From assembly GCA_965207225.1 (NCBI GenBank), contig CBDBLV010000002.1, positions 64,001-128,000 of the forward strand: 64,000 bases of DNA, read 5' to 3'. Source of the DNA: Dehalococcoidia bacterium (GTDB taxonomy: Bacteria > Chloroflexota > Dehalococcoidia > Plut-88900). Under the pieces are notes generated by a model that worked only from the letters and a program-made list of their open reading frames with translations, ran no database searches and was not told the DNA's origin. Both the position numbers and the translations under genes were made by a program. Shown piece after piece: positions 18,911-49,950 of this stretch (its first letter is position 1; every line of letters starts with the position of its first letter).

Positions 18911-19067
18911 GACTCTATGGAGAGTGATTTTGCTGCCAATAAGTTGTAGAATGTCAGATATTCGGAATAGACATTGAGAAATAGGGGCAATGAAGAACTT
19001 CGATACCCTAGTCGAAACTGTGCCGGTGCATGATCATCACCACTGGGCATCATAGAAGAGGAGACAC

Positions 19068-32996: not shown

Positions 32997-33143
32997 CTGC
33001 GTATCTTCCATCCGCATAATGTTTGGCCGGGCCCCATGTGGTCTGAGATAGCAACTCGTCTCTACAGCTCAAGTGCTCTTCTCCGCGGAGCCGGCCGCTA
33101 GGAGGCGGACCCATCAGGCATGGCTCAATTCCCCAAATCCCAG

Positions 33144-34600: not shown

Positions 34601-35407
34601 GTGAAGGGAGCTTTCGAGGGAAATATGTCCATGCCTCTAGTCGAGGAGATCCACGCCCTGGAGACCAAACTGGCCTTGATCGACAGACCAGATTGGGGCC
34701 CAGGGCATAGACCCTCTGCCCCGGCCATTATCGAAGCGTCCTTTTGGGCTCGAACCATTCTGGAGATTATCTCTAGTGCCGACCTCGAACAGATGGGACA
34801 TCTAGTCGAGACCTACATCTGCACCGTTCACGGTGTCTCGGACCCCGACCATCCTGGAAGCGCGAAAGCCGTATACGACGACAACAAACGCATTCCGCTG
34901 ATGCAACTACTCGGTTACATCATGCACGTCCGATACTTTTCGTTTGCCATTCACACCGACGGCAACCACTGCTTGGACGTCATGAGCGACCGACACGATC
35001 GCACCCTCGTCTACTATTCGGACTTCGTAAAGGCTCTGAGATCGTTGGTGCTGCCCCAAAGATCCGCAGCCGCCGCTATCTGCGAACTGACGGAACAGGC
35101 CACACAGAAGCAATTAATGGGAACCTCCGGTTACGAAGTGGGTATCTTCTCCTCCGTAAACTTCGGCTGGGTTCTGTCTGGCTTCGTGAAGAACCGCTCC
35201 TCACTGAAACGCCAGATACTCTCAGCGATCTTCAACATCGACCAAGTACCAGATCACGCACTGAACGATGTTTGGTTCTTCGTTAGCAGGACGGGTCCCG
35301 GTAACCAGATGGTGATCGGACTCACTCCTCCATGGGAGGACGACCAAAACGTCTTCTCACCATCTTTCGACAGGACGTTGCTGTACGACATAATCAAGAG
35401 CCATTAG
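34601..35407 (+). CDS. Hypothetical protein
   Basis: 268-aa ORF with globular composition and no recognised motif. Confidence 0.55.
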   Translation: MKGAFEGNMSMPLVEEIHALETKLALIDRPDWGPGHRPSAPAIIEASFWARTILEIISSADLEQMGHLVETYICTVHGVSDPDHPGSAKAVYDDNKRIPLMQLLGYIMHVRYFSFAIHTDGNHCLDVMSDRHDRTLVYYSDFVKALRSLVLPQRSAAAAICELTEQATQKQLMGTSGYEVGIFSSVNFGWVLSGFVKNRSSLKRQILSAIFNIDQVPDHALNDVWFFVSRTGPGNQMVIGLTPPWEDDQNVFSPSFDRTLLYDIIKSH

Positions 35408-35462: not shown

Positions 35463-37058
35463 CTAAGAGGGCTTCGTGACGCGATTTCTGGCAGGCGTGG
35501 CTGAGCCGCCCAGCACAATCTCCTCGGACTCCGCTTCGGGCATGTGACTGTCGTCGGGCATGGGTACGTTGTAGTGGATCACGGCCTTGCTTGGCATGAC
35601 CACAATCTCCCCGACGAAGGTCTCGGCAAAGGCCTTGCGCTCGGACAACTCGCTCTCCCCTAGAAACTCGCCCATGTCCTGCGCCCGTGCAACGATGGCC
35701 TCCAGGTCGGACTTGACCGACCTGCGCTGGGAAAGGATGGACTGAGCCTCCTCCAACGATGCCTCAAGAAGGCTCCGCCTCTCAGTGTTGGCCTTGATCC
35801 GGATATCCATGTCAGCCGGGACGTCGTCGGTGGTCTCCACAACGTCCCAGAGCCGACCTAGCCGGCGCCGCACGTCAGCCAGTTCAGATTCGATGGTCTC
35901 CAGTCTCCCACGTTGTTCGCGGACCAGGCCATCCAGCTCCTTAGCAACGACTTTCGTCAGATCGCCAATGATGCCTTCGGTTAGGATGCTAGAGCGAATC
36001 GTCCTGACGATCACATCCTCGAAGCGGCGGGCGTTGAGCCTGGGGGTATCGCAGCCGCCGCTCCCACGTTTGATCAGGGACTGGCAGACGTAGTAATGGA
36101 ATCTGCCGCTCTTGGCGTCCTGGCCCGAGAGCAACGTCTTGCATCTGTAGCACTTGACGAGCCCGCTGAACATGTAGGAGCTTCCCACCCTACGGGGATG
36201 GGCGATCCTGGGTGCGCGGGAACGCGTCCTGGCGTTCACCCGGCGGAACAGAGCCTTGGAGACTATGGGCGAGAACGCCCTCTCCACTCGAACCGGCTCA
36301 GCCTCGTCTCCGGCAGCGGTGCCCCAGACGAGAGTCCCTGTGTACACCTCGTTGGTGAGGATGAAGCGGACCGCATTACTGGTCCAGTGCTTGCCGGTGG
36401 CGCTGGAGATGCCCTGGCCGTTGAGGGTGCGGGTGATGTCCAGCATCCCTTTTCCGGTGTCGGCCAGCTCGAAGATCCGTTTGACGACATAGGCCGTTTC
36501 CTCATCGGGTTCCAGCTTGGGCCGCTTCTTGGCACCGTCCTGCACCATGATCCTGTTGTAGCCGTAGGGTGTCCTGCTGGCGACCCAGAAACCCCGGGAA
36601 GCGGCCTCTCGCATCCCGCGCCGGACCTCTTGCGCCAGATTCTCCGAATAGAATTCGTCGACGCTCTCGATGATTCCTTCAAGGAGTTTGCCAGCTGGAG
36701 TGTCGTCGGCGTTCTCAGTTATGGAGACGACCCTGACGCCGCGCCTGCGGAGCATGGACTTATAGGCGACGGCGTGCTCGCGCTTCCTGGTGAACCGTGA
36801 GAACTTCCAGACCAGTATCTCCCGGAATGCGGCATCGGGAGATCTGGCTTCTTCTATCATCTTGTTGAACTGGGGCCGGTCGTCGACCCAGCCGCTCTCG
36901 GCCTCGTCGACGTACTCACGGACGACCACCTGGCCATTCTTCTCGGCGTGGTCCCTCAGCGCCCGCAACTGGGCTGCGACCGACAGGTCCACGTCCTGAC
37001 GGTCGCTGGAGACCCTGGCGTAGAGGGCCACCGGTGTGGGTTCGGGTCTTTCACTCAT
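35463..37058 (-). CDS. Large serine recombinase LSR3
   Basis: MSERPEPTPVALYARVSS, SRFTR, FYSENL, CYRC. Confidence 0.92.
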   Translation of the reverse strand: MSERPEPTPVALYARVSSDRQDVDLSVAAQLRALRDHAEKNGQVVVREYVDEAESGWVDDRPQFNKMIEEARSPDAAFREILVWKFSRFTRKREHAVAYKSMLRRRGVRVVSITENADDTPAGKLLEGIIESVDEFYSENLAQEVRRGMREAASRGFWVASRTPYGYNRIMVQDGAKKRPKLEPDEETAYVVKRIFELADTGKGMLDITRTLNGQGISSATGKHWTSNAVRFILTNEVYTGTLVWGTAAGDEAEPVRVERAFSPIVSKALFRRVNARTRSRAPRIAHPRRVGSSYMFSGLVKCYRCKTLLSGQDAKSGRFHYYVCQSLIKRGSGGCDTPRLNARRFEDVIVRTIRSSILTEGIIGDLTKVVAKELDGLVREQRGRLETIESELADVRRRLGRLWDVVETTDDVPADMDIRIKANTERRSLLEASLEEAQSILSQRRSVKSDLEAIVARAQDMGEFLGESELSERKAFAETFVGEIVVMPSKAVIHYNVPMPDDSHMPEAESEEIVLGGSATPARNRVTKPS

Positions 37059-37195
37059 CTTGGGTTCCTTCCACTGTTCGTGCTGTTCGGTCACGGCAGC
37101 CCATGGAACGGTTCCCGTGCAGCCATTCCGCCTAACAGGCATCTTGGGATGCGACAAATGTGGTGGTGGAAATTGCCGAGAAGAGGCTTCCGCGA

Positions 37196-37550
37196 TTGGG
37201 ACATTCAAGCGGCCGCTGCGGATTTTCGGCATGGACGGCCGCCAGAGACAGGACGTCGAGGTGGTCGTGGGCACCGGTGCCTTCTACACCACGTTGCCCG
37301 TTGGCCTGTTGCGCAGCCTGGGAATAGAGCCGAGGGGCAAACGCAGGTCCCACAAGCCGGTGGGCGGGGGATCGATCTGGACTATGGCCAGGCCTGGGTT
37401 TCGATAGACGGCAAGAGCGAGATCACCCAGGTGGTATTCGGAGAGGACGATTCTCCGGCCCTGCCGGGGACATACAGCCTTGATTGTGTGGCCCTGGAGG
37501 TGGACCACATCGAACAGCGGCTGGCCCCCAAGACCCTGATCTTGTACTAG
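37196..37550 (+). pseudogene. Degenerate clan AA (retropepsin-like) aspartic protease
   Basis: VVGTGAFYTTLP (DTG changed to GTG), a frameshift near 37370, then PALPGTYSLD..LEVD. Confidence 0.65.
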
Positions 37551-37649
37551 GGCCAGCGCCCTTTCCCGTTTGCGACTCCACCCGGCCTCCTCTGCGCTCC
37601 GCGTCGGCCCTCCCCGACGATACCGGCGCCTCTTCAGCTCGACTCCTTC

Positions 37650-37850
37650 CTAACACCCTGAAGTGTCACTCGCATCCCCTTCCGAGTCTTCTTCATTCGG
37701 TCTCGGCGGCTGTGCAACCCTGGGCTTAGGCGCCTGCTCTCTCAGGTGAGCGCGGAGAGCGACCTTCGCCAGGATGCTCAGTCCCTGCCGGATTGTCTTT
37801 TGTTGAGTTGCGGAGTACGACTGCCACTCCGACGTCTTATCATCTTCCAT
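37650..37850 (-). CDS. Small protein upstream of LSR3
   Basis: Starts immediately after the E1 stop. Amphipathic helix QGLSILAKVALRAHLR. Confidence 0.45.
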   Translation of the reverse strand: MEDDKTSEWQSYSATQQKTIRQGLSILAKVALRAHLREQAPKPRVAQPPRPNEEDSEGDASDTSGC

Positions 37851-39266
37851 TCATCTACTCATGTAGGCCGTTGATGGGCCAGGCTCCAGCGTAGCGGCTG
37901 TCGTACCTGGGTTGAATGGCGGACCATCACTACACACCACCGCCTGGCGCAGCTCAAGAGAGCGTAGGCTCCCATCTACAAGCTCGTATCGAGGTCCGCC
38001 CGATCCCAGCCTTATGAGCTCGGCGATGACCACTGCCGCCGTGACTGCACCCACAAATGACGCACCAACGGTGCGGCCAGCCAACGTGATGATTCCACAA
38101 TCGTCGACTCCGTCTTGAGCTAGTGCGCGGTAGGCGGGATTCTCGGCCACGGCATCCGCATCGGGCCGGTGTCCTTCCGTCCCCCAGCGATGCCTTGCTG
38201 TTCGGCTGGCCGGGAACGTGTGGGTCTGAAATGCGAGGTATTCCTGGGTGCCGGCACCCAGGCCAGCTTCAATGACGCGGTCAAACCCAACAACTTCGAG
38301 GTCCGCTCGGGCAAGAGCATTGTCTACGCCACACAGAGCAACACGTGGCTCATCCCCTGCAACCACAAAGTCGCCCGCGAATTTCCGCTCCACTATGGAA
38401 GTGCGGAACCCGCGTAGTTCACACCAAGCCGCCATCGCTCGGGTCTTCTTCGCCCCCAGGATCGCCCGCGCTGTGAGGAGCGAGGTGCTGTCATTGGCCT
38501 CGACGAGCTCATCAAAATCCTGGAGTACGAGGTTGACCTCCTCAGGGGACTCATAGGGCAGGAGACCGAGTGTCCAAAGAAACGCTTGGCCCAGGTGGCC
38601 GAGCCCGATAATCCAGGCACTTGCCGGCAGTCGTTCTAGTTTGGGTCCCAGCTCATCAGCGTCTAGCCAGTTGATGGCCTTATCCGGCTGCCACAGCGAC
38701 AGTCCAACATCTCGTCGCCCAGCCACGGCGTTATCGCCGCGCACGAACTGGAATGCCTCTGAAACCCCGAGTGCTCCCGCGAGAACTCCTGCCGGAATGC
38801 ACTCTTGCCGCTCCGGGAGTTGAAGACCTTGATGCAGAGGTGCAACGCCCGCACGCCAGCCATCAAACGTCGCGCGCACAGCGAACTCAGCATCCGTAGG
38901 CGGCGGGGACTTACCCCCCATCACGATGCGCGGAATGCCAGGAGCGCAGTCAGCAATGACCCCTCCTAGATCTACAATGGCTTCCCGCAGGGTGCGGCAA
39001 CGTCCCCAGGACACCAACAGGGGCACATCAAGCGTACCCTCGACACTCACTCCGCCCAGAAAGCTGCGACGGCCTGTGTTTACCGCTGTCAGCAACGCTG
39101 CCTGCATCGTTGGTGAGTGGGCGACACTGCCCCCCACCACGATGCCGAGTCGATAGCTGTCGAAGAGGCGCCGTGCCTCTTCGAGGCTTCCCGCCTCTCC
39201 CGTATCTAGGACGAGCTTGAGGTGTCTGTGCAACTCATCTGGTCCTATGACTGCGTTCTTTGTCAT
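37851..39266 (-). CDS. E1/ThiF-family enzyme (type I BilD-like)
   Basis: IGLGHLG, QDFD..VEANDSTS, CGVDN, EAGLG, DDCG candidate catalytic Cys. ATGA overlap with the JAB stop. Confidence 0.85.
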   Translation of the reverse strand: MTKNAVIGPDELHRHLKLVLDTGEAGSLEEARRLFDSYRLGIVVGGSVAHSPTMQAALLTAVNTGRRSFLGGVSVEGTLDVPLLVSWGRCRTLREAIVDLGGVIADCAPGIPRIVMGGKSPPPTDAEFAVRATFDGWRAGVAPLHQGLQLPERQECIPAGVLAGALGVSEAFQFVRGDNAVAGRRDVGLSLWQPDKAINWLDADELGPKLERLPASAWIIGLGHLGQAFLWTLGLLPYESPEEVNLVLQDFDELVEANDSTSLLTARAILGAKKTRAMAAWCELRGFRTSIVERKFAGDFVVAGDEPRVALCGVDNALARADLEVVGFDRVIEAGLGAGTQEYLAFQTHTFPASRTARHRWGTEGHRPDADAVAENPAYRALAQDGVDDCGIITLAGRTVGASFVGAVTAAVVIAELIRLGSGGPRYELVDGSLRSLELRQAVVCSDGPPFNPGTTAATLEPGPSTAYMSR

Positions 39267-39793
39267 GCCCATACTCCTGTATAGAAGAAACGTCCCCAAC
39301 CGGCTGCCCTGTAATTGCGCCACCTGTGACTGCCGAGATACTCGTAGACGCCCACGTCCCGCATCCTGAAGTCAATCGCGAAGTTCGGCACGATCAGCGC
39401 CACGTGACCAGCCTGCGCGATCATCGGGTTGTCCCTGTCAAGCGGGCTCTGCCGCGCCGGTCCGGAGCCGCCGTGCGTGTGCAAATCGGCAAGCACCCTC
39501 AGACCGGTCTCCCGACAGAGCTGCCACAACGGTCCGAAACCCGCTCCATCAAAGACCACAATGCCGGAGTCAAGGCAGGCTGGGTCGAAATCGTCGTAGT
39601 ACGCGAATCTCACCACATGGCCACGCAGGCCATCTCTGTAGCCGAGCAGGAACGCGCCACTTTCGTGGCGACCTTCTCCGCGTCTGGCGACCTCAGTAAG
39701 CCCCTGCCGCCAAACCGCCCTGGGGCACCTCAGTCTATGCCTAGGCGCCGTTAGGGCCCGAATAGTCGCTCGAATTGAGAAGGTCATGGACAA
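39263..39793 (-). CDS. JAB/MPN peptidase (type I BilC-like)
   Basis: ESGAFLLG...ADLHTH..QSPLD. Confidence 0.88.
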   Translation of the reverse strand: MSMTFSIRATIRALTAPRHRLRCPRAVWRQGLTEVARRGEGRHESGAFLLGYRDGLRGHVVRFAYYDDFDPACLDSGIVVFDGAGFGPLWQLCRETGLRVLADLHTHGGSGPARQSPLDRDNPMIAQAGHVALIVPNFAIDFRMRDVGVYEYLGSHRWRNYRAAGWGRFFYTGVWA

Positions 39794-40229
39794 TCCTCAA
39801 GTAGTGTGTGATGTCGCTCTCTGGCGACCAGATCATCGAGGGGTGTTGCGTCCGCCACCCGTCGTGGCCCTCGATGGAGAGGCGGTCACAAGGTAGATAG
39901 AGGCACCGGCCGTTGTTCCATCCAGGATTGAAGGCCTTGGATACACGTTTCGTTCCACTTGGCCAGCGCTCCGGTGGCAGTGGAGCATCTTCTTCAGCAT
40001 CCCATGGCTGAGCTGTTGGGGGCGACTGAGGATAGTTCGTGCACTCGAAGCGCAGCGCATACTCAGTTGGACCACCCTCCCTCCCAGCCGCCTGGACAGC
40101 GATTACGGCGTGGGGCCAGTTTATGGAGAGCAGGCGCCACCGGCCGCGGTCGAAGCCACTCTGGAACGGTCCGGCTTCGAGGTGGGCCCGAAACACCTGC
40201 TCGTCCACTCCCATTGTCTGCGCGGACAA
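39741..40229 (-). CDS. E2 enzyme (type I BilB-like)
   Basis: FECTNYPQSPP..WD, FNPGW, LYLPCDR, H..W. Confidence 0.8.
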   Translation of the reverse strand: MSAQTMGVDEQVFRAHLEAGPFQSGFDRGRWRLLSINWPHAVIAVQAAGREGGPTEYALRFECTNYPQSPPTAQPWDAEEDAPLPPERWPSGTKRVSKAFNPGWNNGRCLYLPCDRLSIEGHDGWRTQHPSMIWSPESDITHYLRIVHDLLNSSDYSGPNGA

Positions 40230-40232
40230 GCC

Positions 40233-40754
40233 CTAACCCTCCACCCGCTGCTTCGCAACCAGGTCAAAGCAGAGGGTCCCGTCCGGGAATTTCACGAGCG
40301 TGCCGATATGCACCTCTTCGTCAGGCTGGTCGCCTGAGTTGCAGACCTTGAGCACATGCTCGGCGGCGTCAACGGGCGACAGGTTGTACTGGTCCTTCCC
40401 GGTCGCCCATTCCTTCACCCGGTCAACCGTCGCCGATGGGGCGAAGAACCCCTTCTTCTGGTCCTGGTTGTAGTTGACCGTGACCTCGACGCTCTTGCAG
40501 CGGTGTATGTGCACGCGGCTGCGGGGAGTGAGGCCGGCCTCATCGATCTTCACGTCCAGTTCCAGGGTGACGTCGGTGTTTTCGATGAAGACGCACACCT
40601 CTGTGTCCTCAGGCCCGCTCAGGCCATGTTCGCGGGCTATCTTGACGATATCCGCCACGGTGTCCTTCGGGCCGAGTTTCACAAGGGTGATCTTCGGGAT
40701 GCCCTCTCCCTGGATGAAGATCTCAATCTGGTCCGGCGCATTGAGCTGAGTCAT
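40233..40754 (-). CDS. ISG15-like ubiquitin-like protein with two Ubl domains (type I BilA-like)
   Basis: 173 aa with two beta-grasp-like halves, ending RVEG. First gene before E2-JAB-E1. Confidence 0.8.
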   Translation of the reverse strand: MTQLNAPDQIEIFIQGEGIPKITLVKLGPKDTVADIVKIAREHGLSGPEDTEVCVFIENTDVTLELDVKIDEAGLTPRSRVHIHRCKSVEVTVNYNQDQKKGFFAPSATVDRVKEWATGKDQYNLSPVDAAEHVLKVCNSGDQPDEEVHIGTLVKFPDGTLCFDLVAKQRVEG

Positions 40755-40875
40755 TCGACTGTCCTTTCTCCCACAGCGGTGGGACTCTCTGGAGTGGGCG
40801 TCGTTTGATGCCCCTACTAAGACAATCGGAGAAGAAGGGACAGACCGGAAATGGCCGTGCCAGCGGCAGTGACGG

Positions 40876-43800
40876 TTACGTGTCCTCGCCCAGCGGGCAG
40901 ATAAAGTAGTGAGGACAACGGGGACAGATGCGGTCGCTAGGCTTGGGTGAGAAATCCTCGCGCAGGATGCCTTTGATGGCTTCGTTGTAACGGTCCAGGC
41001 GAGTCTTGATGGGTCCGGGTCGTGGGTCGACCGGGTCTACCTGATCGGCCGACAGGTAACGTACCTGTACGCGCCGTCGAACGCGTGGCTCAGCCTCCTG
41101 GGCCGCCGTCACGTACAGAGCATAGATGTCCTTTCCGACCTCGCTCTTCGTCGGACGACCGGTGCGGAGACGCTCAACGACCTCGGAGCCATCGCTGAGC
41201 ACCTCGACATGATCGGGCGTGAATCGAATCAGGCCATGTGGCACCGACACCTCCCACGTTGGCCTTGTTGCGGATCCTTGAGACGTGTATGGGCGTCTCG
41301 CAGCCATCTCTACCAGGTCAACGGCTGAGGCACGATACAACTCCTTGTACGGGTGCTCTTCCGGCCCTTGCTCCTGCCAGACTTCTGCCAGGTAAGCGAG
41401 CGCGGCCGTCTCATCTACAGGATTTCCAGAGGCGCGTTCCTCCGCCATCCAGCGCAACACACGATAGACGCAGCGGTGAAACTCGACGTACCCGGAATCC
41501 TCGCGTCTCCGATTCAACCCGAGGACGCTCTCGTAGAAGTACTGACGCGGGCAACGGATGTAGACATCTAGGTCTTCAGCGGCGAAGGGCTCGCTTGCCG
41601 GCGTGGGGTCTGCTACGAAGACCGGAGCAGTAGTCGTGGATGCCCAAGTGACGGGGCTCGACTGATCTCTGGGCAACAGGCCTGCCATCTTGTCGAGCAG
41701 ATCTGACGCATGGCTGTTCTGCGCTCCGTACCTGCGAACTCGCGAAAGACACAGGAAGTCTCTCGCACGGGATAGCCCGACGAAGAAGAGGCACTCCTCT
41801 TCTTCGTCGTGGTCATCACTGGCGGATACGATCATACCCTCGGGAGGAGGACAGGGCTGTGCCTGACGTCGGGCCGGGAACAGACCTTTGCCCAGAAACG
41901 GCAAGTAGACGGCCTGAAACTCCAGTCCCTTGCTCGCATGCACGGTCAGGAGTCGCACTGCATCGATGTCGTCCGCCCAGGTCGGCAGATGCCGGAGTTG
42001 CTTCTCGTCTCCGTATATCTCAAGTCGGCGCACGTATCGCAAGAGACGGAGCTTGGCGTCAGTCGCCTCCCCGGGAGCCGCCGGTCGCTGTTCGTGGACG
42101 AACTGGAGGAATTGATACAGCGCCAGCAAGCGTTGCTGCCCAGCCACGGACGGATCGCCCAAGAGGGTGTCCAGATAGCGGCTTCTCTCGAACAGGTAGT
42201 AGGTGAGCAGCGTCCAGGGTCCGACATGCCTCATCCCATCTACATGGCGTCCCAGCAGAGCGAGACCTTCTCGACCCTTTGGCGAGATGGTCGCTTCCGT
42301 CGCAGCCAGAGCCAATGCGCCCGGGAAAGGGACGTTCCATTCCTTTGCCAGTTCGAGCAGCGCGAGAACATCATCGAGCGGGATGTCGTACTCGGGAAAC
42401 CGCGCCAATCGAACTAGACCCCGCCCATCAGGTTCGCAGGCGAAGGACAAGAGGGATAGCATGTCTCGGATTTCCGGACGCTCGAAGAGGTCACCCAAGT
42501 AGAGAACCGGCACGCCTAAGCCTTCGAGTTCGGCTGCGACTCTGCCAAGGTTTGTATGGGAACGACAAAGAACGGCTTGCTGGCTGTAAGGGATGCCGGA
42601 GGCCCGCTGACGCTCAATCTCCGTAGCCATTCCGGCCGCCTCAGCAGCAAGGTCGTCGGCAACCTCCAACAAGACCCGCCCGCCAGAGTCTGGACGCTTC
42701 GGCTCCCAACGGACGAACCCTGGTCCGCCCTGGCTTGCCCGCATACCGGGTGCCAGCCCTGCGAAGACATCCACAATAGCTGGTTGGGACCTGTAGTTGT
42801 ATCTGAGAGACTTTAGCTTTGCCCCAGGAAAGTCCTCGCCGAATCGCCGCATATTGGCCGGGGCGGCGCCGCGGAACCGGTATATTGCCTGACGTGTATC
42901 CCCTACAACCCAAAGACCTGCGCCCGCACCGGCCAGCTCCTTAAGGAAAAGCCCGCTGGCACGGTTCACGTCCTGGTACTCATCGACCAGAACATGGCGA
43001 TAGGTGCTCCGCAGCGTGTCCCGCACATCGACGTGCGTCCTGAGGAGCGACACTGATTTGTAGATGAGATCCCCGAAGTCGAGTAGATGCTCCCGGTCAA
43101 GGACATCCTGATACTTCCTGTAGACGCGCGCAACCTCGACGGCTTTCTCGGCCGCCTCCGTCTCGTCAGGCGTCGTGGCCCGAGCAAGCATGTTCTCCCC
43201 AAGATCGGCATACTCTTGTGGCCCTACCAGCTCGTCCTTCGCCCGGGATATTGCCGACATGATGTCACGCAGGTAGAGAGCGGGGTCATACAAGTTCTGA
43301 TAGTGGTCCAGCTCCAAGTCTGAGACCATCCCCTCCAGCAGGGCGATAGAGTCGGACGGATCCAGCACGCCTACCCGGGCTGGGAGACCTACGTGAGCGC
43401 TGTACCTGCGCAGCAACTCCAGACCAAAGGCATGAAAGGTCCCGATCCAGATGCGGGGTGCATCATCAGGTCTGGCCTCTGCCACACGTGACCGCAGTTC
43501 CTCGGCCGCGCGGTTCGAGAACGTCAGCGCAAGGATCGATGTTGGAGGCACCCCTTGTTCAAGGAGAAACACGATCCGGCCCACCAAGGTGCGGGTCTTT
43601 CCGGTCCCCGGACCGGCTTCCAGGAGCAACGGCCCCCGCGGCGCGTGAGCAGCGTCCTGCTGGCTGGGGTCCATGGGACGTTCGTCCGTTCCGCCAGCAG
43701 ATACGCCAGCAGGACGGATTTCCGGCGTGAGCAGTGCCCGTGCCATCTGCTGTAGAACAAGCGACTCGGGAAGGCCCAGCCTCTCTGCTGTGTTGCTTGC

Positions 43801-44268
43801 GCTGGCCCTATCAGTCTCGTACCAGGCACGCAGGACGTCAGTCGGGAGCAAGAACTCCCGTGCAAAGACATTCGCCTCACGCTCTCTCAGTTCCTCCGGC
43901 CCATAACCCTCAACCCGATTTACGCCAACCGGCAAGGGTTCCTCAATGGCCTCGGGATCGAGGTTGAATTCTCGCTGGCTCTCCCGTTCGGGGTGCAACC
44001 ACAAGTGGGCATACTCGTGAGCATGATAGAAGCGAGCCAGCCTGGGTTCGACTTCGCGGTTGAACCACACCCTCTTCATGACGTGGTCGAGCGCCGCATC
44101 GGCGCCGTCCAGCAACGAGTCGCCGGCGGCCAGGGCGATTCTTTCGAAGCCAGTCAGCCGCTCTGCCGCAGCGAGCAGTGATTCAGCTGAGGGATCTCCC
44201 CCCGCTTCTCTAAGCGCTGCGGAGCGCTGCGTCCGTGCCAGCCTCCTTATTTCGTCCCAGTGGCTCAC
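40876..44268 (-). CDS. IrrE/ImmA metallopeptidase - UvrD/PcrA SF1 helicase - Fe-S PD-(D/E)XK-fold fusion
   Basis: RFYHAHEYAH..EREANVFAREFLLP; AGPGTGKT, VDEYQD, QAIYRFRGA, NYRS, TVHASKGLEF, SRAR; CPRQY...CPRCPHYFIC. Confidence 0.9.
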   Translation of the reverse strand: MSHWDEIRRLARTQRSAALREAGGDPSAESLLAAAERLTGFERIALAAGDSLLDGADAALDHVMKRVWFNREVEPRLARFYHAHEYAHLWLHPERESQREFNLDPEAIEEPLPVGVNRVEGYGPEELREREANVFAREFLLPTDVLRAWYETDRASASNTAERLGLPESLVLQQMARALLTPEIRPAGVSAGGTDERPMDPSQQDAAHAPRGPLLLEAGPGTGKTRTLVGRIVFLLEQGVPPTSILALTFSNRAAEELRSRVAEARPDDAPRIWIGTFHAFGLELLRRYSAHVGLPARVGVLDPSDSIALLEGMVSDLELDHYQNLYDPALYLRDIMSAISRAKDELVGPQEYADLGENMLARATTPDETEAAEKAVEVARVYRKYQDVLDREHLLDFGDLIYKSVSLLRTHVDVRDTLRSTYRHVLVDEYQDVNRASGLFLKELAGAGAGLWVVGDTRQAIYRFRGAAPANMRRFGEDFPGAKLKSLRYNYRSQPAIVDVFAGLAPGMRASQGGPGFVRWEPKRPDSGGRVLLEVADDLAAEAAGMATEIERQRASGIPYSQQAVLCRSHTNLGRVAAELEGLGVPVLYLGDLFERPEIRDMLSLLSFACEPDGRGLVRLARFPEYDIPLDDVLALLELAKEWNVPFPGALALAATEATISPKGREGLALLGRHVDGMRHVGPWTLLTYYLFERSRYLDTLLGDPSVAGQQRLLALYQFLQFVHEQRPAAPGEATDAKLRLLRYVRRLEIYGDEKQLRHLPTWADDIDAVRLLTVHASKGLEFQAVYLPFLGKGLFPARRQAQPCPPPEGMIVSASDDHDEEEECLFFVGLSRARDFLCLSRVRRYGAQNSHASDLLDKMAGLLPRDQSSPVTWASTTTAPVFVADPTPASEPFAAEDLDVYIRCPRQYFYESVLGLNRRREDSGYVEFHRCVYRVLRWMAEERASGNPVDETAALAYLAEVWQEQGPEEHPYKELYRASAVDLVEMAARRPYTSQGSATRPTWEVSVPHGLIRFTPDHVEVLSDGSEVVERLRTGRPTKSEVGKDIYALYVTAAQEAEPRVRRRVQVRYLSADQVDPVDPRPGPIKTRLDRYNEAIKGILREDFSPKPSDRICPRCPHYFICPLGEDT

Positions 44269-44927
44269 GGTTCCCCCGTAGACCGTTCAAGCGCATACCA
44301 GTGTTCAGCATGCTCGGGACTGATTGTCGGGTCAGCGCGAACCGCGTCGAAGAAGTCCTCCTGCGCCATGAGCTTCGGTGCTTGCTCGGAGCGATGCTCG
44401 GTCCCAGCCGCCAGTATCGGGTCCTGCTGTAGGTAGGCCCTGATGTTCGTTGCCTCGCGTTCAACTGCTTGGGCAATGCGGTCAATCAGCTCTTCCGGGA
44501 TGGTGGCCCAGGCGATCAAGCGGCGGTCAAGCTTTCTGAGGAGGCTGTCCCCCAATCCAACATCATGCGCCAACCGGCGCGGCTCAAGACCCCGTGCTTG
44601 CCCTTCCGCTATCAGACTCTCAAAAGGCACCGCCGGATCTGAGGTAGACTCCGTCGATTGCCCGTGAAGTATGTTCTGGACAACACTCATGCCTCGAAGC
44701 ACCAGCGTTTCTTCGGTGACTTCCTCCGCGTTAGGTGCGGCAGGCAACCACGTCATCAGGCTCCAGCTGGCTGCGAACTCGATGATCTCTCGCTCGAACT
44801 CCGGGTAGCGCCGAGTCCATTCTTCAAGCGGGCTATTGGGGCCGACACCGGACGCCACGTAGGCATCGAGTACGTCCTCCAGGAATTCCTGGTCCATTGG
44901 TCTGTTCATCTCTGTTCTCCTCGCCAT
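44265..44927 (-). CDS. Putative anti-sigma-like N-domain plus XRE-like HTH protein
   Basis: PLEEWTRRYPEFEREI in the N-domain, ARGLEPRRLAHDVGLGDSLLRKLD as HTH-like segment. Overlaps both neighbours. Confidence 0.55.
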   Translation of the reverse strand: MARRTEMNRPMDQEFLEDVLDAYVASGVGPNSPLEEWTRRYPEFEREIIEFAASWSLMTWLPAAPNAEEVTEETLVLRGMSVVQNILHGQSTESTSDPAVPFESLIAEGQARGLEPRRLAHDVGLGDSLLRKLDRRLIAWATIPEELIDRIAQAVEREATNIRAYLQQDPILAAGTEHRSEQAPKLMAQEDFFDAVRADPTISPEHAEHWYALERSTGEP

Positions 44928-45712
44928 GCCTCCAGAATCTCATCAGCTCTGGACAACCAGTTTCTGATCGTTCGAGGTGTCTTGCCGAAGTGTCGGCTGA
45001 TAGTCCGTACAGCCGGGTCCTTGTCTTCGATTGGCCAGTCTTCCAGGTGGCGGAGTAGGTATGCGGACCGGATGGGCTCCTCCAATTGATTCAGCGCCGC
45101 TTCAATCAAGACGTTGTCGATCGCCTCCGATGCGACGGAGCGACCACCTGAAGCAGCCGGCACCACCTCGGCGCCCTGCTGAGTTAGTTCGTCGATGGCC
45201 ACTTGGTCGTAGTCACCGCTGGACTCAGTGTCAAACTGTTTGATTTGCTTCCGAAAGACATCCACCGTGATTCTCTCGATGACCGTCCAGAAGCGGACTT
45301 GAAGAAAGTCCCCGCGGTCGCTATCCAGGTCCAGTATCCGGGTGAATACCTCCGCGACGACTGCTGCGTTCCCATCTTCCCTCAGATCCGTTCTCAAGCC
45401 GCTCAACTTACCGTTTATCCAGGTCGCACAACGCTTCAGCAGGCACTCGGTGAGGTCGTTGACGCATTTTCGATTTCCCACTGCGTGGTGGTGCCGTATC
45501 AGATAAACCAGCGACTCCTCCTTCAGAAATACGGGCGACTCTTCGTCACGAACTATCAGTCGGCTTCGAAGCTCTTCGTCGTTCAGTCCGAGGGCCCCTT
45601 CGATCTGCCTGTCCACAACCGCCAGGCGCTGGTAAAGCTGACCATGCGCGTTGCGGTGTGTCAGTGGCTGCGGCAGGCAGGATTCAACCTGCCGTGAGGT
45701 TTCATGCTCCAT
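44906..45712 (-). CDS. ECF-like RNA polymerase sigma factor
   Basis: Region-2-like segment (..RITVDVFRK) and region-4-like ALNQLEEPIRSAYLL..ISRHFGKTPRTIRNWLSRA. Confidence 0.7.
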   Translation of the reverse strand: MEHETSRQVESCLPQPLTHRNAHGQLYQRLAVVDRQIEGALGLNDEELRSRLIVRDEESPVFLKEESLVYLIRHHHAVGNRKCVNDLTECLLKRCATWINGKLSGLRTDLREDGNAAVVAEVFTRILDLDSDRGDFLQVRFWTVIERITVDVFRKQIKQFDTESSGDYDQVAIDELTQQGAEVVPAASGGRSVASEAIDNVLIEAALNQLEEPIRSAYLLRHLEDWPIEDKDPAVRTISRHFGKTPRTIRNWLSRADEILEAWRGEQR

Positions 45713-45922
45713 CTATGGCCTCATGTACGAGTCTCATGTTCAACCGCTCCAACTCACCTGACTTCCTAATCGTGTGTGACCCCGCAGACCGGAAAGTATG
45801 ACTCTGCGGTCGACAGCAATCTGGACGCCCACCCCCCTGGTTTGAATGGGTCCATCGCCGGGTCTTCCGACCTATCGTTTGCGCCTTCCTCCTTGTCGTC
45901 CCTACGTCTGTATCTGCATTGC

Positions 45923-46756
45923 TCACTCCTGCTGGCTGGTCACCTCCAGCAGATCCTGGCTGAGAGCAACGCTCGATGCGGCGATGAAATCGGAGTCCTC
46001 CGTAGCCGGAACGGCCCTGACAACCAACTGGGTGCCCATGTCGGTCGGTGTGCTGAACAGGCGCTGAAACATCGACAATGCCTCAAAGGTCACCGCGCTC
46101 GAGATCTCGTGCGCCTGCAGGAGTCTGAACTCCTCTGCCATCTCGGCAGTGTCAATGGTGCGAAGGAGCCGGTAGATATCAAAGGCGTCCTTGGGGAGTT
46201 GGTCCCGGCGGCGGATATCGTCGTCCTGGAGACGTTCCCCGATCTTGTGTACCTTCGCCACCAGCAGCGCGGCCGGGCTTGCTACTTTTAGCAGGCATGA
46301 GCGGTCCGAACCTGGAACCAGAGAGCTGACCCTCCTGCGACTATGGCCAACAAGAGCACCCTCGAGTCCATGAACCTTCATGGCCGCCCTGTTCCCATGG
46401 ACGCCAAGCCGGGCGGCCCTGCGGCCAGGCCCGCCCACAGCCTGCGGCACCAGCAGGTCGACCTGCGCCCCACCAGCTCTCCTGTACAGTCCGGGTTGGT
46501 CAGACAGCCGGAATCCTGCGAGGCCCATGGCGTCGCCTAAGGCAGGGCTATCCCTCAGCAGGTCTGGATCAAGCGCGAGGTCTGCGTCATAGGTAAACCG
46601 GGCAACGCCGAAGCTGTCATCCTCGCCCTCTATCTGCACGTATATCGCCTGGGCGCCCACCAGAATGACCGCATCGCTGTGGGGTCCCAGCGCCTCGATG
46701 GCGTCGAGCAGCGTCTCGCGAGCATCTATGTAGTGTTGGTCATCGATAGTTTCCAT
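45923..46756 (-). CDS. Nucleotidyltransferase-fold toxin (AbiEii-like)
   Basis: ILVGAQA..TYDAD, VDLL, ALLVAK, KDAFD. Confidence 0.75.
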   Translation of the reverse strand: METIDDQHYIDARETLLDAIEALGPHSDAVILVGAQAIYVQIEGEDDSFGVARFTYDADLALDPDLLRDSPALGDAMGLAGFRLSDQPGLYRRAGGAQVDLLVPQAVGGPGRRAARLGVHGNRAAMKVHGLEGALVGHSRRRVSSLVPGSDRSCLLKVASPAALLVAKVHKIGERLQDDDIRRRDQLPKDAFDIYRLLRTIDTAEMAEEFRLLQAHEISSAVTFEALSMFQRLFSTPTDMGTQLVVRAVPATEDSDFIAASSVALSQDLLEVTSQQE

Positions 46757-47862
46757 CTGTCCTCATTGTCCCGCATCCACTCCAAGAGGGCCTCCGCCTC
46801 GGTCGGTCCTCGCCCAGGCCCCTTCATGAGGTCGAGCAGGACCTGGGTCACGCGGGCGTAGGTGATGCCGTCGTCGCGTTCAGCGCGCTCGAACGCCACG
46901 GGGTCGAATGGGCGTACGAGGAGAACATTGCCTCCGGTATCTGCCGGGCGCAGTCCCAACAACCGCGCCGCAGTCTCCGGATCCTCAACGTAGAGTGACG
47001 CCAGGCGCGGCTCTGCAAACGGAGCCAGACGATACGCCGCAAAGGACCCGGTCACGGTGTATCGGAGTCCCGTTTCGCGAAGTCGGGCGAACAGCGCCCC
47101 CGTTCCCCTAGGTTCAAGCCACGATGTGAGGGTGTTGGAGGCCGTGAAATCGTAGTCCATGGCCCATCTACGGGCCAGAGCCTCCCAGTCTACCGAGACG
47201 ATGCGTCCTCTTGGGCTCTCCTTGGCGACGATCTCGTCCGCCTCCAACAGGTTGCACACCCTCGATATCATGGCGGGGGAGCTTGCAGTCTCAGCAGCTA
47301 GCTCCCGGGTTCCGAAGGGGGTCCGATAGTCGAGGAGGCCCCTGACGACGCGGCCAGCGCGGCCTCCCTTCAGCGAGCGAAGGGGGCGCTCTTCTCTGAA
47401 CGGGTTCCTGTCCGCCCCCTGGGTCTCGATATACACTGCGGGACGTTCAATGGCGAATCTGATGTTGCCGGTCGAGTCGGCATAGCTGATGCCGGCCTCC
47501 GCAAGCCGTTCCCTCGTTAGGGGGCTCAGGTAGGTCGAAACGAGCATGAAGGCGGGATTGACGCTTGCTTGTCTGCTCCTCGGGTATGACAGCGCCTTCA
47601 GCTGGGACTCCACACTGCCGACGAGCCTGGGTTCCACCGGGTTCGCCTTGACCTCAACGATGATGTCGGACGAGAGTCCATCGGGGTCTCGGATTTCCCA
47701 GATGGCGTCGATTCCGCGGGCGGGGTCCCGCGGGGACCGTACAGCCTCACGCCCCTCGCGGTCGAGCAGGCGCCACCGCCGGGGCAGTCGCGTGCCTATG
47801 TCCTTAGCGGCCTCGTCTAGGAGTCGTGTTTCTGATATGTAGCTGTTGCGCAGCATGTGCAA
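46726..47862 (-). CDS. AbiEi-like antitoxin/regulator (restriction-endonuclease-like N-domain + wHTH + AbiEi C-domain)
   Basis: IDA..VEVK, GISYADSTGN, wHTH, TGSFAA, QVLLDL..GPGR..EA. Confidence 0.75.
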   Translation of the reverse strand: MHMLRNSYISETRLLDEAAKDIGTRLPRRWRLLDREGREAVRSPRDPARGIDAIWEIRDPDGLSSDIIVEVKANPVEPRLVGSVESQLKALSYPRSRQASVNPAFMLVSTYLSPLTRERLAEAGISYADSTGNIRFAIERPAVYIETQGADRNPFREERPLRSLKGGRAGRVVRGLLDYRTPFGTRELAAETASSPAMISRVCNLLEADEIVAKESPRGRIVSVDWEALARRWAMDYDFTASNTLTSWLEPRGTGALFARLRETGLRYTVTGSFAAYRLAPFAEPRLASLYVEDPETAARLLGLRPADTGGNVLLVRPFDPVAFERAERDDGITYARVTQVLLDLMKGPGRGPTEAEALLEWMRDNEDRWKLSMTNTT

Positions 47863-48028: not shown

Positions 48029-48862
48029 CTACGATTCATTCCATAGGCGGGCGAGTGCCTGGATGAAGGCTCGGGCCTTGTCGATGGACCACTGGTCCCC
48101 GGATGAACCGAAGAGGTCGACCAGCTGGTTCTGGCACGTGAAATCGGCCAGTTCCGCCGTCCAGAGCCAGTTGACGACTTCGACGTAGGTTTCACGGAGG
48201 CTGCTTCTGAACAGGCCATTGGGGACGTTGTACAGGAGGCACTCCACAAAGTACGACGGTGCCGTGCCCTTGGCGAGTGCGTTGCTGTCAACGAGGTGAT
48301 TGCGCGCCGCCTTGAACATGCGGGTTGCCCGCTTGTACCTGCCGCTGGTGCCCCGCTCCTTCCTTGCTCCCTTGGAATGATGCTGCTGGGGATAACTCAC
48401 GGCCCAACGATGCTCGTCGGGGATGTAGAGTGCAATCCCGTTGCCACACTTCAGCGTCACGACAACGTCGGCCGCTGCCGGAATCGGACCTCCGGCGATC
48501 TTCAGGGATTTGCGGCCTGGAGTCACCGCTTGACCGAACCTGGCTCTGAGGGCGGCTAACACAAGCCGGCGGAACGACTGCCATCTTCCATATGCAAGCT
48601 CGTGAGACTCGCTGTTCTGGAGTTGCGGCCCGGTGAGTGCCGCCACCCTGGGCCTCAGACGCTCATCGAGTTGCACGACCAGGTCCACGTCGCTGTCCCT
48701 TCGCAGGTTCGTGTCATTCTTGTAAGAGCCCTGAAGAAACATCTCGTGCACCGGTAGACCCTGCCGAGCCAAGGCGTCACGGATTGCCGTGTGTGCCTGA
48801 ACGGATGCCGTCGCCGCGTGGTGATGGCTCCACTGTCCTAGTGTCGAATCCGGGATGGGCAA
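48029..48862 (-). CDS. CD-NTase, CdnE-like
   Basis: FLQGSYKNDTNLRRDSDVD, ADVV, SYPQQH..G..K, YKRATRMFK, SYFVECLLYNVP. Confidence 0.88.
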   Translation of the reverse strand: MPIPDSTLGQWSHHHAATASVQAHTAIRDALARQGLPVHEMFLQGSYKNDTNLRRDSDVDLVVQLDERLRPRVAALTGPQLQNSESHELAYGRWQSFRRLVLAALRARFGQAVTPGRKSLKIAGGPIPAAADVVVTLKCGNGIALYIPDEHRWAVSYPQQHHSKGARKERGTSGRYKRATRMFKAARNHLVDSNALAKGTAPSYFVECLLYNVPNGLFRSSLRETYVEVVNWLWTAELADFTCQNQLVDLFGSSGDQWSIDKARAFIQALARLWNES

Positions 48863-48874: not shown

Positions 48875-49945
48875 CTAGTGCTCAGGCCGCTGCGTCGAAG
48901 GGCCGCCTACATCGCCGTTAGGGACCGTTCCGATTCGGCTTGGGCTCTCGATGCCGTTGCCCGACGGGTCGCGTCTGTACCTGTTCCGTACCGTCTCGGC
49001 CGCCTGCGACAGCTGATCCAGCAGGCTCAGGACGATGGGATCGTTGGCTCCGACGTGGGGATTGAGCGGCTGCAGGCTCATCTCAACATGCACCTCCTGC
49101 GTGCCCACGGGAACCACGAATCTTGCGGCCTGGTCTTTCGCGCCCCTTATGGCGCTGAGGACGATCCTCCCCAAGTCTTGCTCTAGAGTTCCACGCATGG
49201 AGGCCATGGCATCCTGTTCGTCCATCACGCGCTGTTGTTTCATTACCTCCATTGCCTTGTCGCAGCCCCATGAGCATAGCTCCGCGAGAATCAGGTCTCC
49301 CGTTCTCGGAAACGTGGGGCCCTCCAGGTCGGGCGGAGAGCCTCGGAAGCTCGCAAAGACCAGCTTCCCGTCGTCATCCAGCATCATGTCGAGGTCGGAC
49401 CACGTTGAGTCGCCATCCACACTCCGTCTCGTCAACTCGTCCGCCACCTGCTCCATGAATTGCATCTGTCGTTTGGCGTCCGCCGGCAGGCTGGGGTCGA
49501 AGTCCCACCAAGGCCGGGACGGCCTGAGTCCGGGAATGAGGGACCGTCTGTGAGGGGCGAGAATCGTGAACAGCGGGATTCCCAACTCATCTGCCACTCG
49601 AAGGGAGTTGCTAGGACGGTTGGACCGCACGACCTCAATGAATGCCAGGGGCTTGCGGTGGGTGTCCAGGATGGTGAGGTCCGGACGGCACCGGCCGTTG
49701 ATCGGCGCGGACTGTTGCTGCTCCATCACTACGAAGCCGGCACCCCGCAGGAGATCGTAGCTGTGAGGGTGCATTCGTTCACAGGTCCACAGGATCTGCT
49801 GGGAAGGCTCGCGGTGCCTCCCGCGATGCGTGGGGGCGTGACTATCTCTACTCTCTCCGAACTCGCACGAGACACATCCGCTCAGCTTGCGGTCTAGGTG
49901 GTCGAAGAGGTCCTGCTTCCACCGTTCGTGCTGTTCCGACGGCAT
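48875..49945 (-). CDS. Hypothetical protein with an N-terminal PD-(D/E)XK (CoiA-like) nuclease motif
   Basis: HERWK, RPDLTILD...AFIEVVRSN. Ends 12 bp upstream of the CD-NTase. Confidence 0.55.
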   Translation of the reverse strand: MPSEQHERWKQDLFDHLDRKLSGCVSCEFGESRDSHAPTHRGRHREPSQQILWTCERMHPHSYDLLRGAGFVVMEQQQSAPINGRCRPDLTILDTHRKPLAFIEVVRSNRPSNSLRVADELGIPLFTILAPHRRSLIPGLRPSRPWWDFDPSLPADAKRQMQFMEQVADELTRRSVDGDSTWSDLDMMLDDDGKLVFASFRGSPPDLEGPTFPRTGDLILAELCSWGCDKAMEVMKQQRVMDEQDAMASMRGTLEQDLGRIVLSAIRGAKDQAARFVVPVGTQEVHVEMSLQPLNPHVGANDPIVLSLLDQLSQAAETVRNRYRRDPSGNGIESPSRIGTVPNGDVGGPSTQRPEH

Positions 49946-49950
49946 GATGT

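Follow-up and report, generated by a model that had tools for sequence, protein, structure and literature searches.

Introduction

The M78 peptidase systems CapH/CapP, DdrO/IrrE and ImmR/ImmA all act by cleavage of a repressor, as the accessible parts of the literature describe them; CapP is activated by single-stranded DNA (ssDNA) and cuts CapH at Phe82|Arg83, just past the helix-turn-helix (HTH) domain. In the accessible portion of their report, Chambers et al. (10.1101/2023.09.26.559546) place CapH/CapP next to 15% of Bil operons and show one Bil operon with a non-divergent capH/capP pair. Other Bil systems protect against phage by conjugating Ubl (a ubiquitin-like protein) to a tail protein of the phage, according to the available text of a second study (10.1101/2023.09.04.556158). 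Here we describe a seven-gene cassette in a 64,000-nucleotide (nt) stretch of DNA from a Dehalococcoidia bacterium (GenBank assembly GCA_965207225.1, contig CBDBLV010000002.1, positions 64,001 to 128,000; hereafter the window), in which genes for a sigma factor, a partner protein and a peptidase-helicase fusion stand directly 5' of a complete bilABCD operon.

Dedicated control of defence genes has been described in other forms. In Myxococcus xanthus the extracytoplasmic function (ECF) sigma/anti-sigma pair DdvS/DdvA controls an island of CRISPR-Cas genes and of genes for the cyclic-oligonucleotide-based antiphage signaling system (CBASS), in the account given by the accessible sections of PMC11506125. 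Three families of DNA-damage-responsive controllers, all repressor-based, are treated in PMC13373217, and the words 'helicase' and 'M78' have no occurrence in the part of that text that is accessible.

We judge it fairly probable that the present cassette is a self-contained signal-transduction unit, in which a helicase-coupled peptidase cuts an anti-sigma/HTH protein and the freed sigma factor drives both its own operon and the cargo operon. An earlier note on this DNA had proposed such a chain, running from the peptidase-helicase through the partner and sigma to Bil. On sequence and modelling evidence that chain gains support from a paired promoter-like motif, a predicted sigma:partner interface, a CapH-like HTH, a CapP-like peptidase and conserved synteny.

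Results

Organization of the cassette

Seven co-directional, tightly packed open reading frames (ORFs) lie on the minus strand between 37851 and 45712, and an ORF check returned all of them at the coordinates that the earlier note had given (Table 1). The overlaps reported there between the sigma and partner genes, and between the partner and fusion genes, are present, but the length of 220 aa assigned to the partner probably needs correction. Nearly all partner homologues (among 120 listed) have 214 aa, and the true start is most likely the seventh codon of the 220-aa ORF, at 44909, to judge from the sequence. With this start both upstream gene junctions become 4-nt overlaps, ATGA and GTGA, and the ATGA start-stop overlap of sigma and partner is of the kind seen in translationally coupled pairs. 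The spacer between the fusion gene and bilA (40755-40875) has the 121 bp expected from the same note.

The four downstream genes were identified by PADLOC as BilA (3.3e-50), BilB (2.4e-67), BilC (3.1e-61) and BilD (2.4e-170), in the order Ubl-E2-JAB-E1 on one strand, which bears out their reading as an ISG15-like (Bil) conjugation operon. BilB also matches Pfam DUF7665 (1.3e-61), while the Pfam Prok-JAB match of BilC is weak (0.0036). BilA ends in ...RVEG, and thus in the C-terminal glycine of such proteins, and its residues 9-173 are covered by the PADLOC profile of 162 positions. BilD is present in 2 of the 401 genomes of the phylum sample, one of them the genome of the window.

Table 1. Features of the cassette and their positions in the window
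Feature	Position	Strand	Basis or remark
Divergent ECF-like sigma factor, 268 aa	44906..45712	-	Pfam + predicted fold
Partner protein p214, 214 aa	44265..44909	-	Longer 220-aa ORF starts 44927
M78 (ImmA/IrrE/CapP-type) Zn-metallopeptidase domain, fusion residues 1-195	43684..44268	-	PF06114
UvrD/PcrA-type superfamily 1 (SF1) helicase core, fusion residues 199-850	41719..43674	-	Pfam, TIGR01073
4-Cys PD-(D/E)XK-like C-terminal domain, fusion residues 896-1130, degenerate catalytic motif	40879..41583	-	PDDEXK_1
bilA, ubiquitin-like protein, 173 aa, C-terminal Gly	40233..40754	-	PADLOC
bilB, E2-like	39741..40229	-	PADLOC + Pfam DUF7665
bilC, JAB/JAMM peptidase, start codon uncertain, ORF overlaps bilB by 53 nt	39263..39793	-	PADLOC
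bilD, E1-like, start codon uncertain (profile match from residue 27)	37851..39323	-	PADLOC
P1, bipartite promoter-like motif (TTCCGGT, 16 nt, GATT), ~56 nt 5' of sigma ATG	45768..45794	-	
P2, second bipartite motif copy, 16-nt gap, ~70 nt 5' of bilA ATG, inside spacer	40824..40850	-	

A bipartite motif precedes both the sigma gene and bilA

Alignment of the two non-coding stretches of the window with those of ten relatives (11 loci) revealed the same promoter-like motif at both places. It consists of TTTCCGGTCTG, 12 nt and CGATTA 5' of the sigma gene (P1), and of TTTCCGGTCTG, 12 nt and CGATTG in the spacer before bilA (P2). TTCCGGT is invariant at P1 in 11/11 loci while its flanks diverge; at P2 both TTTCCGGTCTG and GATTGTC are invariant in all 11. 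The pattern TTCCGGT, 14-17 nt, GATT has two matches in the window against 0.08 expected, each with a gap of 16 nt.

In 54 of 61 loci, distant ones included, the shorter motif TTCCG[GC] stands at both places, at most 220 nt before sigma and at most 220 nt past the end of the fusion gene, although this count is not a probability, since the related loci are kin and not independent samples. As a control, its frequency in random 220-nt segments of the same loci is 0.175 per segment. The -10-like half differs between lineages and agrees within each locus, as would be expected if a private sigma factor had both an autoregulated promoter and a cargo promoter. It reads CGATT in Chloroflexota, CTATT or CCATT in acidobacterial loci with an exonuclease cargo, CCTATTT in a locus with a poly(ADP-ribose) polymerase (PARP) cargo (L133), TCACGACTGG in a Bub locus (L127) and GGAATT in several Rhizobiales.

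A third site, with a TTCCGGTCTGT start (G000:C5:1078951-1078978; L023 1501-1528), probably arose by chance; its gap is 17 nt, and a 199-aa ORF of the opposite strand contains it. The same site is found ~180 nt before a 76-aa ORF.

A two-domain sigma factor

The sequence of the first protein passes a curated cut-off only in region 4, where the Pfam Sigma70_r4_2 match (6e-7) scores 29.5 bits against a cut-off of 25.7; the whole-ECF model TIGR02937 matches weakly (2e-4, 20.9 bits against a cut-off of 42.9). The structure model (predicted local distance difference test, pLDDT, 77) has a domain 2 at residues ~64-165, a domain 4 at ~191-268 and an N-terminal extension of ~60 aa. The 20 top VIA matches of this model, each with Z of at least 8.1, are all sigma factors. 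Domain 4 matches CnrH domain 4 (Z 10.8, root-mean-square deviation, rmsd, 1.4, 67 residues) and SigmaE region 4 on DNA (Z 9.8), and the matches to SigL (77-268, 154 residues, Z 10.5) and to SigW with RsiW (64-267, Z 9.9) extend over both domains. Region 2 is recognizable by fold, through SigA domain 2 (Z 7.3, residues 62-161) and the SigR N-fragment (Z 6.4, 77-158). The top Foldseek rows are likewise all sigma factors, the best with E 1.0e-3 (sigmaE/RseA). The gene is present as a single copy in the genome, and its homologues number 273, the named ones coming from Chloroflexota metagenome-assembled genomes.

The partner combines a predicted sigma-binding domain with a CapH-like HTH

The partner has 235 homologues, of which those with names are again from Chloroflexota metagenome-assembled genomes, and it matches no Pfam or NCBIfam family, even at E 10. 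Its model (pLDDT 70; numbering of the 220-aa ORF) begins with four helices, 9-25, 34-40, 42-60 and 72-90, and continues with a five-helix XRE HTH domain (101-170), a linker and a pair of C-terminal helices. The fold of residues 101-170 is closest to that of the CapH N-domain (Z 7.2, rmsd 2.1, 63 of 66 residues, 25% identity) and also matches SinR (Z 6.9), P22 c2 (6.7), DdrO (6.2) and ImmR (6.2); these Z values are middling, yet each match spans the whole of a small domain, and the HTH is assigned by fold only, no Pfam HTH family having been matched. CapH, DdrO and ImmR are all three known substrates of M78 peptidases. The XRE-like HTH that the earlier note had assigned to this protein is thus recovered from its predicted fold.

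Between the HTH and the C-terminal helices, the linker at 173-186, which includes EHRSEQAP, is modelled with low confidence or disordered, yet highly conserved. A motif of aromatic/hydrophobic-[RK]-[AS]-x3-P is kept there in 22 diverse partners. By analogy with the cut that CapP makes in CapH, the candidate scissile bond is most likely His178|Arg179, ~10 residues past the HTH.

The N-terminal domain contains no cysteine and hence no zinc motif. Co-folding of sigma (26-row alignment) with the partner (25 rows) in three runs gave interaction scores (ipSAE) of 0.90, 0.89 and 0.90 against 0.13 for the best control; among solved complexes 58 of 80 come up to that mark, among mismatched pairs 2 of 110. 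Contact agreement between the runs is at least 73%, and the partner pLDDT is at least 77. In the predicted interface, partner residues 14-90 lie on sigma residues 76-157 (domain 2) and 200-243 (domain 4), a placement that is classic for anti-sigma factors. As a model, it supports binding, in line with the earlier suggestion of an anti-sigma-like N-domain.

A CapH-like HTH next to a repeated motif also invites the main rival to a sigma-driven control, namely that the shared motif is an operator. The XRE HTH of the partner would bind it and repress both operons in the manner of CapH, M78 cleavage would relieve the repression, and sigma would be accessory, or both mechanisms would operate together. 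The fold similarity to CapH and other DNA-binding repressors, the CCGG core of the motif, and the fact that the three M78 systems act by repressor cleavage, as the accessible sources have it, all speak for this explanation. We nevertheless consider it unlikely, as the motif, resembling a -35/-10 pair, is an asymmetric sequence in two parts whose gap is fixed at 16 nt in either copy, and its orientation is always that of the downstream genes. The partner N-domain is predicted to clamp sigma, and the sigma gene is kept in 66 of the 71 loci that have enough upstream sequence. A consensus scan of 37300-46100 for sigma-70 promoters and terminators returned hits at the level of shuffled sequence and neither a promoter nor a terminator on the coding strand at the spacer, so that, as far as a consensus scan can tell, the coding strand of the cassette offers such a repressor no sigma-70-type promoter to block.

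The fusion joins an M78 peptidase to a helicase with a degenerate nuclease-like domain

The third protein of the trio, of 1130 aa, matches the Pfam families Peptidase_M78 (PF06114, 4.6e-11), UvrD-helicase (4.4e-67), UvrD_C (1.8e-26) and PDDEXK_1 (1.5e-10). Its translation contains the peptidase motif HEYAH, the helicase motifs GPGTGKT, DEYQD, GDTRQAIYRFRGA, TVHASKGLEF and VGLSRAR, and four cysteines of the C-terminal domain, one in YIRCPR and three in CPRCPHYFICP (CxxCx5C). Walker A, DExQ, III, V and VI, the motifs expected of SF1A helicases such as UvrD, PcrA and Rep, are all present. The intact HExxH, the full set of SF1 helicase motifs and the 4-Cys C-domain reported earlier can therefore all be read in the protein, and they are invariant in 27 family representatives of 31-53% identity: H84, E85, H88 and E129 with the helicase motifs, and C906, C1115, C1118 and C1124. 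The peptidase domain thus has both the HExxH of M78 peptidases and their downstream glutamate ligand. Its profile finds CapP (7t5t, 3.8e-6) and IrrE (3dte, 2.9e-4) as the closest solved relatives in the PDB.

The canonical nuclease motif of this fold is D...(D/E)xK. The fusion has the four cysteines of the AddB/Cas4 type but lacks this catalytic motif, carrying ERLRTG in place of the expected (D/E)xK. ER[LI]RTG is kept in 11/11 orthologues, which upholds the earlier reading of a degenerate motif. Distant members have [EQRA]R[LIV]RTG, with QRIR, RRVR, RRIR and ARVV among the variants, and in some the D of 'PD' is replaced as well. No GAF family was found in the fusion by Pfam, residues 199-1130 being taken up by the UvrD helicase and PDDEXK_1. 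The TIGR01073 pcrA match (4.5e-90) is under the equivalog cut-off, and by such scores the helicase is a distinct branch, below the cut-offs of PcrA, Rep and UvrD. An exhaustive profile-free search shows the fusion to be a large family: among the best 150 cluster representatives, alignments of 33-55% identity that run almost from end to end are the majority. Sequence searches of solved structures returned nothing useful for the partner profile, the nuclease-like domain, BilA or the single N-terminal sequence.

Many family members, including the relatives L016, L025 and L026, have a cysteine ~13 residues past the second histidine of HExxH. This is the place of the 'cysteine switch' loop of CapP, as the accessible account of CapP locates it; the window copy has a phenylalanine there (residue 101, ~43966-43968).

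The architecture could also be that of an effector. The fusion would then be mainly a repair or effector enzyme acting on phage or damaged DNA, with sigma and partner answering another signal and Bil merely co-expressed. Its helicase motifs are intact, its best PADLOC matches are the defence helicases RTasHel (4.9e-74) and GajB (9.2e-72), and solitary copies occur among housekeeping and repair genes. We regard this as quite improbable, because the catalytic nuclease motif is degenerate throughout the family while the four cysteines are invariant, the peptidase active site is equally invariant and has no obvious role in a pure DNA enzyme, and the partner has exactly the kind of HTH that M78 peptidases cut.

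Conserved linkage and exchange of cargo

A scan with a partner alignment, taking one genome per species, gave 10 loci. All 10 carry the seven genes in the same order, one of them in an Acidimicrobiia genome. DNA homology to five relatives (L011 and L013-L016) does not extend beyond the cassette; it begins ~85 nt 5' of the sigma ATG and ends near the stop codon of bilD, which argues that the cassette moves as a unit.

A second scan, with a five-sequence alignment of the N-terminal peptidase domain, returned 135 relatives, from which 80 loci were kept, twelve of them duplicating earlier loci. These come from Chloroflexota, Acidobacteriota, Alpha- and Gammaproteobacteria, Binatia, Planctomycetota, Armatimonadota, Latescibacterota and Heliomicrobium, and the carriers that are harmless bacteria of soil and water in culture include Paraburkholderia phenoliruptrix LMG 22037, Pseudomonas tumuqii LAMW06, Bradyrhizobium viridifuturi SEMIA 690 and Rhodopseudomonas rhenobacensis DSM 12706. 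A locus search with the full-length fusion gave mostly ordinary UvrD helicases, with full-length relatives in 5/80 loci. Where at least 2.5 kb of upstream sequence is present in the peptidase-domain set, a sigma-like gene is detected in 66/71 loci and a partner gene in 58/71, a number that ORF-level comparison raises. In several phyla the gene order persists even where sigma and partner are no more than 22-30% identical.

Directly 3' of the fusion gene, all four Bil genes follow in 51 of the 80 loci; the refuting case named in the earlier note, a trio usually found without defence genes, is thus not what these loci show. Elsewhere the same position is taken by a gene for a PolB-like/DEDDh 3'-5' exonuclease (10 loci, one copy partial), a WGR-PARP protein (two, L133 and L145), a type I Bub operon (one, L127, with DUF1508, Multi_ubiq and E2, then JAB and E1) or a large methyltransferase with a metallo-beta-lactamase (MBL)-fold protein (one, L122). 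One cassette is decayed (L117), two loci have no evident cargo (L156 and L177), and in 12 the contig ends too soon to tell. Outside this set, a locus of Sphingomonas cavernae (L027) has the trio followed by a type II Bub operon (Multi_ubiq, E2-E1, DUF6527); the type names are those of the accessible text of PMC11601603.

The WGR-PARP gene of L133, on a Chloroflexia contig, lies at 13629-14915 (PARP 2e-34, WGR 2e-9), and the product of its relative on an Armatimonadota contig (L145, ~13566-14768) is 30% identical to it. The exonuclease, of ~261 aa, is encoded by the sole co-directional gene after the fusion gene (L130 14147-14932 and nine further acidobacterial loci). No Ubl gene was detected downstream of the trio in the exonuclease (n = 10) and WGR-PARP (n = 2) loci. 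The trio, a putative controller, is portable and not specific to Bil; as a whole the module has spread widely, and its ties are preferentially to conjugation systems of the ubiquitin-like kind.

These exchanges bear on two further explanations, both of which we considered and rejected. The first holds that the M78 peptidase works within the ubiquitin-like pathway, for example by trimming BilA or removing conjugates, and has no part in regulation. This is very improbable given that BilA already ends in glycine, that BilC is a dedicated JAB peptidase, and that the trio also precedes exonuclease and WGR-PARP genes with no Ubl gene detected downstream. The second, that trio and Bil share a defence island by chance and are functionally unconnected, could appeal to the AbiE genes and the two serine recombinases of the region, but we give it hardly any credence: the gene order is conserved across phyla to low sequence identity, the motif is common to both promoter positions, and the unit is bounded as one block.

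Several loci depart from the common arrangement. In the exonuclease loci the fusion protein is longer (~1220 aa) and some spacers reach ~480 nt. The Bub operon of L027 is followed, at 16314-21037, by genes for a calcineurin-like phosphoesterase (426 aa) and an ATPase resembling AAA_27 and structural maintenance of chromosomes (SMC) proteins (1168 aa), an SbcCD-like pair; a relaxase/DUF3363 gene lies upstream, and the region may be plasmid-borne or an integrative and conjugative element. In L156 a transposase-like PDDEXK_2/DUF4351 gene (8781-9692) separates the partner and fusion genes, a sign of decay. In L117 the fusion gene is split in two (9968-13414) and followed by no more than a remnant of bilA, with sigma and partner placed further upstream.

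Bil leader, metatranscriptome contigs and genomic surroundings

An inverted repeat, CCCAC, 4 nt, GTGGG, lies at 40770-40783 on the minus strand, directly 5' of the bilA ribosome-binding site. It is kept in most of the 11 aligned loci and may form a leader structure. Seven of the ten relatives have an extra insert of ~24 nt with an inverted repeat of its own in the 5' leader. In the Dehalococcoidia locus L011 (15137-15662) the bilC match comes in two pieces, one base out of frame, through a frameshift or an assembly error.

Contigs from a sponge metatranscriptome run are 88-95% alike to the window over 39356-40789 (bilC to bilA) and 42857-44501 (the partner gene and the 5' part of the fusion gene). 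They are compatible with expression of a relative's cassette, although such contigs cannot show start, strand or true transcription, and DNA may be in a library of this kind. From the lack of cover over 40790-42856 in this run no inference is drawn. Summed contig depth is much higher at 37000-37316 and 46193-46500 than over the cassette in both of the runs compared with this region, and many loose contig ends fall near 37002-37060. The excess suggests repeated or shared sequence at the serine-recombinase end.

In the window the cassette is placed between an AbiEii/AbiEi pair and two large serine recombinases. Directly 5' of it, at 45923-47862 on the minus strand, are genes for a 277-aa AbiEii-like nucleotidyltransferase toxin (PF08843 2.8e-6) and a 378-aa AbiEi-like antitoxin/regulator, a flank common to three relatives (L009, L010 and L012). 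Next to these, a 277-aa protein at 48029-48862 (minus strand) has weak NTP_transf_2 (3.5e-5) and SMODS-like (6.3e-4) matches and is followed by two ORFs of no assigned family (48875-50772); the set may represent further defence genes. Just 3' of bilD lie the two serine recombinase genes (31335-33017 and 35463-37274, both minus strand), with two plus-strand ORFs of no known family between them (33490-34536 and 34601-35407). The recombinases suggest an integrative element.

Discussion

The computation supports the parts of the cassette and the conservation of their linkage, as well as the motif pair and the interface predicted between sigma and partner. From these we infer a course of events in which the GAF domain of CapP and IrrE, a passive binder of ssDNA, is replaced by a UvrD motor and a 4-Cys, catalytically degenerate nuclease-like domain. 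The fusion would engage abnormal DNA, such as ssDNA, ends, or damaged or replicating phage DNA, and this engagement would switch on the N-terminal M78 peptidase. Until then the N-domain of the partner is predicted to hold sigma between domains 2 and 4. The activated peptidase would recognize the CapH/DdrO/ImmR-like HTH with its linker and cut the partner, presumably at the candidate bond near its C-terminus. Released sigma would join RNA polymerase and initiate at P1, giving positive feedback on its own operon, and at P2, driving bilABCD, so that the machinery for Ubl conjugation against phage would be made only on alarm. In other lineages the same trio would drive other cargo.

Several results weigh against this proposal, in addition to the kinship of the loci that share the motif. 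Genome-wide, a loose form of the motif pattern occurs at chance level (5 matches against 7 for a reversed control), and in a cruder test, a comparison of 28-nt windows by identity, the pair outscored every one of 50 controls in just 23 of 61 loci. Neither the sigma nor the partner model had a Foldseek match at E <= 0.001. The fold of the partner N-domain resembles generic helical bundles only (Z 5-7.3), with no anti-sigma chain among the 50 matches listed, and the score of the modelled complex may partly owe to its likeness with solved sigma/anti-sigma complexes. Cleavage close to the C-terminus is not enough to account for the departure of sigma from the N-domain; further degradation or a loss of oligomerization must be assumed. 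Finally, M78-helicase genes stand alone, with no sigma gene, in L177 and in L028, where the gene lies among housekeeping genes near one for methylpurine-DNA glycosylase; such copies indicate that the fusion has, or had, a function of its own.

To our knowledge, little has been described of the way in which ubiquitin-like immune systems of bacteria are turned on. The cassette suggests an activator-based route that would join anti-sigma proteolysis to IrrE/CapP-type cleavage by way of a helicase sensor. If this is true, bacteria tie ubiquitin-like modification and PARP to a signal of DNA disturbance, as eukaryotes do, and the cargo swaps point to bacterial WGR-PARP and the PolB-like exonuclease as members of the same type of alarm regulon. 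The model lends itself to direct tests through the promoter pair it defines, the interface it predicts and the scissile bond it puts forward as candidate, and orthogonal expression switches could be made from the lineage-specific pairs of sigma and promoter. The literature searched yielded no description of a sigma / anti-sigma-HTH / M78-helicase module, although supplementary operon catalogues, outside that search, might list such neighbours.

Comparison with known systems

The closest described systems are CapH/CapP and its relatives DdrO/IrrE and ImmR/ImmA. The M78 HExxH peptidase of the cassette is closest to CapP and IrrE, its partner has a CapH-like HTH and a short C-terminal helical part, a conserved hydrophobic-Arg/Lys bond lies past that HTH like Phe82|Arg83 of CapH, and the trio stands beside Bil and Bub operons, as CapH/CapP does. 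It differs in having a UvrD helicase and a 4-Cys nuclease-like domain in place of the GAF domain, an additional N-terminal domain in the partner that is predicted to bind sigma, and a sigma gene within the module. Its regulator genes are co-directional with the cargo, whereas Bil-linked capH/capP genes are described as divergent, and its output is probably activation by freed sigma and not the loss of a repressor.

ECF sigmas are commonly autoregulated through a promoter before their own operon, and the cassette resembles ECF sigma/anti-sigma pairs under regulated proteolysis (sigmaE/RseA, SigW/RsiW) in having the same motif 5' of the sigma operon. Its two-domain sigma matches the folds of SigW, SigL, SigH, CnrH and sigmaE; the presumed anti-sigma gene is translationally coupled just downstream of sigma, and its product is predicted between sigma domains 2 and 4. 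Unlike in those pairs, only region 4 of the sigma passes a sequence cut-off and an N-terminal extension of about 60 aa precedes domain 2, the anti-sigma lacks an N-domain Cys/zinc motif and is fused to an XRE HTH, and the presumed protease is a cytoplasmic M78-helicase fusion, not a membrane site-1/site-2 protease. With DdvS/DdvA the cassette would share a dedicated sigma/anti-sigma pair over phage-defence genes. DdvA, however, is transmembrane, whereas the partner here is a 214-aa HTH protein with a presumed helicase-linked peptidase as trigger, and the cargo is different.

The fusion itself is related in design to AddAB and AdnAB and to the iron-sulphur (Fe-S) PD-(D/E)XK nucleases AddB and Cas4: an SF1 motor is followed by a PD-(D/E)XK-like domain with an N-terminal cysteine and CxxCx5C. 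It departs from them in the ER[LI]R that replaces (D/E)xK and in the M78 peptidase fused at its N-terminus.

Finally, the trio recalls CapW/BrxR and CapK+CapS, which the accessible text of PMC13373217 presents as portable controllers directly 5' of variable cargo, with Bil and Bub among the cargo they share with it. YegP is given there as a CapK/CapS cargo, and the first cargo protein of L127 has a DUF1508 (YegP-like) stretch. The controllers themselves are distinct, a WYL repressor and a kinase/STAS repressor in those systems and sigma, anti-sigma and peptidase-helicase here. On its sequence, the module is a variation on the theme of DNA-damage-responsive controllers. We tentatively suggest that it may represent a fourth, sigma-based class of alarm-responsive immune and stress controllers, in which an ATP-driven, Fe-S, nuclease-dead helicase would act as sensor, a fused peptidase would destroy a hybrid anti-sigma/HTH protein, and a private sigma with a promoter pair would provide positive feedback; found in several phyla, such a class would be tied above all to Bil, Bub I and Bub II, and also to WGR-PARP and the PolB-like exonuclease.

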